Under the pieces are notes generated by a model. That model was not told the DNA's origin. It saw only the letters and a program-made list of their open reading frames with translations, and did not search any database. A DNA stretch of 64,000 bases from the NCBI GenBank assembly GCA_900552655.1, contig USAE01000001.1:3392-67391 (forward strand), given 5' to 3'. Position numbers and translations under genes: made by a program. This stretch comes from an uncultured Clostridium sp. (GTDB taxonomy: Bacteria > Bacillota > Clostridia > TANB77 > CAG-508). Shown here piece after piece: positions 58,217 to 58,429 of this stretch. Each line of letters begins with the position of its first letter. The first letter of the stretch is position 1.

Positions 58217-58366
58217 AAAAAGCATACCTAAAATTTTCTACCAAATGTAAATTATAAGAAAATCTAAGGTATGCCATAATTCTCTAGTACAGAAATTACT
58301 CCTACCAGGAGTAATTTCCTACTATATAAAAAAGCATACTAGAATTTATCTCTAATATGCTTTTTT
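58217..58366 (+). ncRNA. Copy 3 of the approximately 150-nt structured element.
   Basis: AAAAGCATACCtaaaaTTTTCTac..taAGAAAAtctaaGGTATGCcataatt ctcTAGTACAGAAATTACTCCT-ACC-AGGAGTAATTTCCTACTAtataaaAAAGCATA-(18)-TATGCTTTTTTAG. The last hairpin, a 10-bp stem plus a T-run, is a terminator. Confidence 0.55.
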
Positions 58367-58398
58367 AGTATTTTCAATCTGTGTTATATAAGCTAAAT

Positions 58399-58429
58399 CG
58401 GGATTTTAAGGATCGTCCCATAATCCCTG
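58399..58429. repeat. GC-rich palindromic REP-like element, copy D (forward orientation). It lies 3' of copy 3 of the 150-nt element, between the convergent dac and HD genes.
   Basis: CGGGATTTT-AAGGATCGTCCCAT-AATCCCTG followed by TTTTATTATATTG. Confidence 0.65.

Follow-up and report, generated by a model that had tools for sequence, protein, structure and literature searches.

The 230-nt gap (58205-58434) between two convergent genes of an uncultured Clostridium sp., dac for a D-alanyl-D-alanine carboxypeptidase and a gene for an HD-domain protein, raises the question of whether the sequence between them forms one dedicated regulatory module or a set of unrelated elements. The gap lies in a 64-kb stretch of contig USAE01000001.1 (assembly GCA_900552655.1), referred to as the window, to which all coordinates apply unless a related locus is named by its handle (e.g., L083). 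In a sequence-only reading of this DNA, the gap had been described as a composite module in which a 150-nt structured element with its own terminator is followed by a GC-rich palindrome. The gap is indeed filled in this way, with short spacers only: from dac towards the HD gene it consists of an A-run, hairpin H1, a linker, hairpin H2, TATAT, an A6/GCATA...TATGC/T6 hairpin, a 32-nt spacer and palindrome P. The best explanation, however, is that these are three independent things, namely one copy of an interspersed repeat (element E, comprising H1, the linker and H2), the bidirectional terminator shared by the two genes, and one palindrome resembling repetitive extragenic palindromic (REP) sequences. 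A real, repeated and strongly structured element followed by a palindrome of a second family is thus upheld, whereas a terminator belonging to the element and a composite module are not, and the dac-HD gap is not a dedicated regulatory module.

Element E is a short interspersed repeat of a narrow clade

A covariance model built from 21 distinct copies of E gave exactly three full matches in the window by cmsearch, all on the + strand: copy 1 (30018-30136; 136.4 bits), directly after the mreB terminator (30135-30160, - strand); copy 2 (55446-55564; 130 bits), directly after the terminator of rpmE, encoding ribosomal protein L31, and with P on its other side (55404-55431); and copy 3, in the dac-HD gap (58216-58334; 134.3 bits, E 1.8e-25). 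The match of copy 3 includes both flanking A-runs, the core without them spanning approximately 58222-58327, and its terminator-like polarity is that of the window - strand, although it is written on the + strand. Its strong fold agrees with the earlier description, the whole E region having z-scores of -9.6 (+ strand) and -10.3 (- strand) relative to shuffled sequence. A direct-repeat search of the window returned three copies of ~155 nt and a partial fourth, and a decayed remnant with the 5′ half of H1 only (18008-18078; 19.7 bits, E 0.12; direct-repeat family D7) is located after the stop codon of a convergent gene, beside a bidirectional terminator. The conserved, non-coding repeat is about 111-119 nt long (~115 nt), shorter than the 150 nt first proposed, and the extra hairpin lies outside it.

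An exact-pattern scan of 185,579 species genomes identified 15 E loci, all in five metagenome-assembled genomes labelled uncultured Clostridium, Clostridiaceae or Clostridia, and a metagenome scan identified 43, for which the records with a stated source give the human gut. Both scans required AAATCTAAGG and together yielded 58 E loci representing 39 distinct copies. Many contigs stop inside E (L006, L008, L011, L024, L028, L034, L039, L041, L053 and L058) and four Logan contigs end ~98 nt past the dac stop codon, as expected of a multi-copy repeat. Rfam 15 produced no match at gathering thresholds across the whole window, and in E-value mode at the locus the best sub-threshold score was 21 bits against a threshold of 100. 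No relevant match was obtained by BLAST of the locus against plasmids and phages or by a pattern scan of viral contigs, and a full-text literature search found no described Clostridium counterpart of E. The genes beside E copies are unrelated, including dac and the HD gene, mreB, rpmE and a radical-SAM gene, a gene with a chaperonin-like ending, and mscS. E is best read as a previously undescribed family of non-autonomous repeats belonging to one narrow clade of uncultured Clostridia from the human gut, and it looks like selfish repeat DNA rather than a dedicated regulatory module.

Two covarying hairpins form the repeat

In copy 3, H1 (58222-58274; -21.8 kcal/mol, z = -5.6) consists of two 18-nt arms (58222-58239 and 58257-58274) that contain a conserved A·A mismatch and enclose a loop of 17 nt. 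The single-stranded linker CATAATTCTCTA(GTACAG) (58275-58286), conserved in the 21-sequence alignment, separates it from H2 (58287-58322), in which GTA/TAC pairs lie outermost and an inner stem of 11 bp (58292-58302 with 58308-58318) encloses the loop TACCA. On the - strand, TTTTT (58221-58217) directly follows H1, giving it the shape of a terminator, and T5-6 is found after H1 on this strand in all listed copies, whereas the + strand has CATAAT after H1. No T-run follows H2 on the + strand, and on the - strand the terminator-like call was restricted to the inner H2 stem of copy 2.

Covariation was counted on the alignment of the 21 distinct copies, where 97.1% of paired cells hold standard pairs. 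Both sides have changed in 14 of the 31 pairs (7/17 in H1 and 7/14 in H2), a level reached by none of 500 shuffles, and when partners were slid by 1-3 columns, pairing fell to 35-51% with at most 4 both-side-changed pairs. The A·A mismatch of H1 (alignment column 15, a column that was not forced by the search pattern) is invariant in 22 full-length copies and in the 21-sequence alignment; two copies consisting of H1 only, L052 and L040, have a T at this column and so regain the pair. E is most variable in the outer stem of H1, at its extreme end.

The same architecture could describe a paralogous family of small-RNA genes, each transcribed from the - strand just downstream of another gene's terminator to give an RNA of ~105 nt with H2 as a stabilizing 5′ stem-loop, UGUACUAGAGAAUUAUGG as a single-stranded seed, and H1 plus its U-run as a rho-independent terminator. 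The hairpin-linker-terminator layout with a T-run in every copy is what such a family would show, as is the strong covariation of both stems; the linker is retained in the diverged L083 copy while the H1 loop is not, and a TATAGT-like hexamer is conserved ahead of H2 on the - strand. However, a scan for consensus sigma-70 promoters found none inside the three window copies and none shared at their edges; these copies lack a -35/-10 pair, and the -35 position falls in the variable host hairpin. In addition, copies decay, lose modules and differ between sister lineages, neither strand has an excess of G·U over A·C, and the copy number is high enough to cause assembly breaks. A small-RNA family is the main rival explanation, though an unlikely one.

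Several candidate features of E were dropped. CATAAT in the linker and TATAGT before H2 were set aside as promoter parts, having no shared -35 box; an origin of the outer H1 stem from the host terminator, for which GCATAC occurs in both H1 and the host hairpin of copy 3, has no matching counterpart in other copies; and likenesses to CodY, IHF and DnaA-box sites in H1, noted by eye, are too weak. At L032 (1-900), the sequence to the left of copy 1 of E is different and includes a further partial element, and the H1 of this copy is mismatched (5′ arm GCGAACC, 3′ arm GGTACGC), suggesting recombination or misassembly within H1.

E abuts resident terminators in one orientation

The stem with a T-run that the sequence-only reading assigned to the element is confirmed as a pairing of AAAAAAGCATA (58328-58338) with TATGCTTTTTT (58356-58366). 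The resulting hairpin (58328-58366; A6, GCATA...TATGC stem, T6; -18.6 kcal/mol, z = -6.7) has the predicted shape of an intrinsic terminator, a stable stem-loop with a T-run, on both strands. An A-run/stem-loop/T-run of this kind starts 0-5 nt past the right end of E in ~18 of 21 independent full-length copies, and its sequence, stem length and loop are unrelated between independent copies. The median fold energy of 50-nt flanks is -11.25 kcal/mol on the right vs -3.55 kcal/mol on the left (Wilcoxon P = 6e-5). At rpmE, the hairpin AAAAAAGAAAATTATA...TATAATTTTCTT is kept in four lineages. The E copy next to it is intact in the window and has decayed in L077; in L083 it is complete though diverged, and in L080 only a short hairpin is left of it. 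Because its sequence varies per copy and the rpmE hairpin is kept where E decays, this third hairpin is a resident host terminator outside the repeat, common in the present case to dac and the HD gene, and not the element's own. The hairpin at copy 1 has a T-run on the - strand only and is called as the mreB terminator by the terminator scan, and at L031 and L002 a P-like palindrome stands beside E where the terminator hairpin would be.

Of 20 independent copies of E, 17 have a right neighbour that reads towards the element (binomial P = 0.0026), the stop codon of this gene lying 11-107 nt from the end of E, while left neighbours are on the + strand in 10 copies and on the - strand in 8. Read along the right-hand gene, the parts always come in the order gene, terminator hairpin, T-run, (A/G)TAT, H2, linker, H1 and T-run. 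A convergent left neighbour often ends 0-17 nt from E, as does dac, whose stop codon is separated from the A-run of copy 3 by 12 nt with no terminator in between; the transcript of such a left-hand gene must therefore cross E to reach the shared terminator.

At L010 and L025, a ribosome-binding site directly follows E on the + strand, which fits E being permissive to + strand transcription. This arrangement, along with the highly structured nature of E, could also point to a cis-regulatory leader, riboswitch or attenuator of the adjacent gene. Such a role has next to no probability, since the neighbouring genes are functionally unrelated, most copies lie at gene 3′ ends with right neighbours predominantly reading towards E, and Rfam holds no match. 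At L001 (~3590-3680), a gene stop codon (TAG within CTAGTACA) falls inside the E linker, and H1 with its T-run is the sole terminator-like hairpin of this gene; the product, in our own - strand reading, ends in ...GGGTPAGMPDMGGMY and resembles a chaperonin tail.

P belongs to a separate palindrome family

The GC-rich palindrome, listed earlier as copy D, was recovered as P (CGGGATTTTAAGGATCGTCCCATAATCCCTG) at 58399-58429 (58400-58427 without the outer C/G), 5 nt after the HD stop codon, with a fold z-score of -2.3. It is one of four matches in the window, at 12767(-), 19041(+), 55404(-) and 58400, vs 0.00 expected by chance, and 19 distinct copies were found in ~700 kb of related loci, with the consensus aaCCGGGATTTTAAGGACCGTCCCyrAATCCCGattt. 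P is a 28-31-nt extragenic repeated unit, within the 20-40-bp size of REP palindromes, and the copies at 19041 and 58400 lie 5-10 nt past a stop codon. As DNA, P is almost perfectly palindromic, with an inner loop too small to make a strong hairpin in RNA. A terminal GTAG/CGTC tag is absent: CGTC is central, the flanks read aaCC...Gattt, and only the 19041 copy is then followed by CTAC.

Within the window, P is present in two of the three gaps containing E, a borderline association (hypergeometric P ~0.04 over 30 gaps), and at copy 2 (55.4 kb) it lies on the other side of E and in the other orientation compared to copy 3. Elsewhere, adjacency is rare: canonical P occurs within ~150 nt in 3 of ~45 distinct E contexts, vs 0.8% of random 290-nt segments, which are mostly coding DNA, and indel-variant P was seen by eye beside E in four more contexts. 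E and P are separate families that share a habitat, short 3′ intergenic spacers, with no fixed arrangement and no module.

These observations bear on the view behind the sequence-only reading, in which a + strand RNA of ~150 nt comprising H1, H2 and its own terminator forms a functional composite with the palindrome. The third hairpin does have a + strand T-run at copies 2 and 3, and the palindrome is near two of the three window copies; yet the hairpin is unrelated in sequence among copies, has no + strand T-run at copy 1, and is conserved as the rpmE terminator beside a degenerate E. Moreover, nothing is conserved upstream of the A-run, leaving no apparent promoter, and the palindrome is variable in side and orientation. 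The probability left to a composite of this type is very small.

Another possibility is that E and P are both architectural or protein-binding sites at the DNA level, placed in 3′ spacers for chromosome organization in the manner of REP sequences and bacterial interspersed mosaic elements (BIMEs), which bind gyrase, IHF or DNA polymerase I. The symmetry between G·U and A·C mismatches in E agrees with pairing or palindromy mattering on both strands, P is better suited to a DNA palindrome than to an RNA hairpin, and both families are confined to intergenic DNA. On the other hand, no binding motif was identified, E copies decay freely, and the strong orientation bias of E to its neighbouring gene would be unexpected for a symmetric site, making this explanation distinctly improbable.

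Copy turnover and lineage differences

Partial copies of E include those with H1 only (L003, L008, L040, L052, L053 and L054) and those with H2 only or half deleted (L041, L033, L044, L007/L023 and L021/L026), and L005 is a tandem. In a sister lineage with ~91-95% DNA identity to the window, E is absent from the dac-HD and mreB gaps and decayed at rpmE. The mreB gap is 164 nt long in this lineage vs 245 nt, and at dac-HD (L077, 4246-4358) a 95-nt hairpin of different sequence with A-run and T-run clamps, GCGAATGC...GCATTCGC (-35.9 kcal/mol), replaces E, the terminator and P. The 8-bp outer stem of the L077 hairpin also occurs in H1 of the E copy in L083.

More distant relatives have plain bidirectional terminators at the dac locus and an extra gene. 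This gene, for a class-3 fructose-1,6-bisphosphatase (PF06874), directly follows dac in L080 (4376-6328) and L083 (4287-6227) and precedes the HD gene in the former and a Spore_YtfJ gene in the latter; it is not present in the window or the sister lineage. Since it is found in the distant relatives only, the dac-HD gap is a scar of gene loss or gain.

A related element, E2, consists of two tandem units of ~105 nt (L084, 1408-1617) located exactly between the end of E and the A-run of the rpmE terminator, after ...TTTTTTCAT, and these units are missing from the otherwise near-identical L083, which has an identical Dac protein. Its layout resembles that of E, with an A-run, a short GC hairpin, ATGTACAGA, an H2-like hairpin and CTATATAAT. 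No further E2 copies were found among the related loci examined. With respect to E2, the two strains differ by a clean insertion, at a site of the type that E occupies.

The left flank of E always ends in a T-run plus AT-like bases, and many copies are surrounded by direct repeats of T5-6 plus ~4 nt, variable in length (longest-common-substring permutation P = 0.026). Examples are TTTTTAGAT twice at copy 1, TATGCTTTTT(T)ATAT twice at copy 3 and TTTTTTGTGT twice at L005, and in some copies the bases co-vary.

At L055 (2607-8923), dac and E are joined, from the last ~10 nt of E onwards, to another terminator and to mscS, gltX, argH and argG rather than to the HD gene, which reflects either a rearrangement at the end of E or a chimeric assembly of two near-identical copies. 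At L049, an E copy stands between a left flank shared with L051 and a right flank shared with L036, the result of either an exchange between E copies or an assembly chimera.

A probable one-way back-up terminator at T-tracts

Taken together, these results suggest that E is probably a non-autonomous repeat whose copies settle at terminator T-tracts in a single orientation and supply a one-way back-up terminator. Its mobility, its targeting of T-tracts (as opposed to selection after insertion) and polar termination are inferred, whereas the existence of the family, the anatomy and covariation of its hairpins, the bias in position and orientation, copy decay, differences between lineages and the lack of a consensus promoter were observed directly. 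According to the proposed mechanism, E would settle directly downstream (3′) of an intrinsic terminator's T-tract, in the orientation of the terminated gene, so that new copies would be placed between the old terminator hairpin and its former downstream sequence. In the direction of the terminated gene (the window - strand), H2, the linker and H1 with its T-run would provide a second, one-way terminator or an RNA 3′-end structure; in the opposite direction, where neither hairpin has a T-run, transcription would pass. For the locus in question, the dac mRNA is predicted to carry all of E in its 3′ untranslated region and to end within 58356-58366 (~58366), whereas the HD mRNA would end at the same hairpin on the other strand, before E, and any HD read-through would be stopped at H1 (~58217), before antisense entry into dac. 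Stem pairing is maintained in spreading lineages, and the structure therefore matters for propagation or function, while individual copies would decay neutrally after spread.

A bolder version, that E represents a new kind of mobile element homing to intrinsic-terminator T-tracts without inverted termini, is improbable, but two routes may be considered for it. In an RNA-mediated route, E may be copied via its own terminated transcript, in the manner of a short interspersed nuclear element, with the U-run after H1 pairing with the A-run of a nicked terminator ahead of reverse transcription; such copying would account for the ends with T-runs, the variability of the flanking repeats, selection on H1 and H2 pairing in spreading lineages, and the strict orientation. 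In a single-stranded DNA route, an HUH-type enzyme may move E by reading terminator hairpins.

A number of observations weigh against, or limit, the reading of E as a T-tract-targeted mobile repeat. Simple cut-and-paste movement is disfavoured by ends that are not inverted repeats and by the variability of the outer H1 stem. The significance of the flanking repeats is modest, there is no exact duplication at the E2 insertion, and no clean filled/empty pair was obtained for E at dac-HD, mreB or the 18-kb remnant. The mreB 'empty' allele contains 29 unrelated nt and 35 adjacent diverged nt, so that this polymorphism, which divides sister lineages and not strains, is not a simple insertion; the sister-lineage dac-HD site is filled by the different hairpin of 95 nt. 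Among strains with exact proteins, the dac-HD gap is 230 nt in all, and the gap with the 18-kb remnant measures 110 nt at nine places and 102 nt at a single one, essentially without polymorphism; diversity over 17 strains is too low for a selection test on E. The compensatory changes, being common to subfamilies, amount to a handful of events rather than dozens, and G·U vs A·C mismatches number 8:6 in H1 and 8:8 in H2, with no asymmetry that would assign selection on pairing to one strand, or to RNA rather than DNA. Termination at H1 is deduced from its shape; the terminator consensus scan did not call it, and its 17-nt loop exceeds that of typical terminators. The AAATCTAAGG requirement inflates the apparent conservation of that arm and narrows the sampled diversity and breadth of the family. 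Finally, no transposase, reverse transcriptase or element with E-like ends turned up, the host genomes not having been searched for them.

Relation to known repeats and mobile elements

Non-coding repeats of 70-300 nt with robust hairpins, present in tens of copies per genome, co-transcribed and lineage-restricted, include bcr1, RUP, BOX, EFAR, ERIC and Correia. Such structured intergenic repeats occur in Firmicutes and other bacteria, with bcr1 in the Bacillus cereus group, RUP and BOX in Streptococcus pneumoniae, and EFAR in enterococci. All of these families, together with ERIC and Correia/NEMIS, are listed in PMC3733652. E resembles them in being short, non-coding, multi-copy, structured into hairpins, intergenic beside coding sequences, lineage-restricted, decaying and strain-variable. 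It differs from these repeats, which resemble miniature inverted-repeat transposable elements (MITEs), in that inspection revealed internal hairpins only and no terminal inverted repeats, the most terminal nucleotides (outer H1 stem) are the most variable, and terminator T-tracts are abutted in one orientation.

Classical MITEs have terminal inverted repeats of ~15-30 bp and a target-site duplication of fixed length. E shares with them a short, non-coding, multi-copy and intergenic nature; its core ends on the - strand (5′ AGTAGGAAAG..., 3′ ...CTTAGGTTCGC) are not complementary, as judged by eye from the consensus, the repeat tool covering direct repeats only. To our knowledge, no cognate insertion sequence for E has been reported. 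Two large REP superfamilies are defined by a terminal GTAG or CGTC tag (PMC3733652). P resembles REP, BIME and REPIN sequences as a GC-rich imperfect palindrome of ~30 nt found in 3′ intergenic spacers in either orientation, although it has no such tag at its ends. E shares with REP sequences a GTAG ahead of H2 on the - strand, but this GTAG is base-paired and E is three to four times longer.

Members of the IS200/IS605 insertion sequence family lack inverted termini, carry subterminal hairpins with conserved irregularities, and insert strand-specifically 3′ of a short, fixed T-rich target of 4-5 nt without duplicating it, using a Y1 transposase; the left-end hairpin of IS200 is a terminator. 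Like derivatives of this family, E has no inverted termini, has subterminal hairpins at both ends (H1 at one and, ~6 nt inwards from the other, H2) and shows strand specificity. In contrast, its two hairpins are dissimilar, the co-variation of flanking repeats on both sides in some copies suggests a real duplication, and no Y1 transposase is linked to E, none having been searched for. Bacterial group IIC introns are typically located just downstream of terminator motifs, i.e., an inverted repeat followed by Ts (PMC1702495). The position of E relative to terminators is the same, but E is ~115 nt long, without ribozyme domains, a reverse-transcriptase open reading frame (ORF) or an Rfam group II intron match.

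E is a new family of a known kind, the small structured interspersed repeats; its habit of abutting terminators in a specific orientation is unusual. Repeats of this kind shape the ends of bacterial transcripts and cause breaks in metagenome assemblies, and E does so in a very prevalent uncultured human-gut Clostridium. Its strict placement at T-tracts in one orientation without apparent inverted termini points to an insertion specificity for which group IIC introns are otherwise the best-known example. Should its mobility be confirmed, E would represent a compact, naturally occurring "portable one-way terminator" and a handle for an enzyme that recognizes terminators as insertion sites; if E is truly a terminator-homing element, by either route, it would distribute one-way terminators around the genome.

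Genes and repeats in the surrounding window

The G+C content across the window is 26.7%, no tRNA or tmRNA genes were found in it, and its clostridial-looking genes include those for MreB, L31, RecD2, Spore_YtfJ and ScpA. In the ORF list, dac occupies 56960-58204 on the + strand (Pfam Peptidase_S11, 4.5e-70, plus PBP5_C), and the convergent HD gene occupies 58435-59217 on the - strand (Pfam HD, 3.7e-11). Directly upstream of dac, a VanW-like gene (56259-56928) is split into two overlapping ORFs of 81 and 168 aa; in the relatives L080 and L083 it is a single ORF of 232 aa, and the version in the window species may contain a frameshift or be a pseudogene.

The host species is highly prevalent, its HD protein being found in 1198 blocks of the collection and its HD, MreB and thioesterase proteins each in >1100 blocks. 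It is represented at NCBI by GCA_046956315.1, and positions 28712-32716 of the window are 100% identical to ERZ27311056:k141_84599 (319 kb). Other direct repeats of the window (1494-1573, 6827-6909, 11358-11668 and 12436-12745; 3083/4537; 22113/22955) all overlap long ORFs and look like paralogous coding sequence rather than non-coding repeats, the one ORF tested encoding a family-2 glycosyltransferase.

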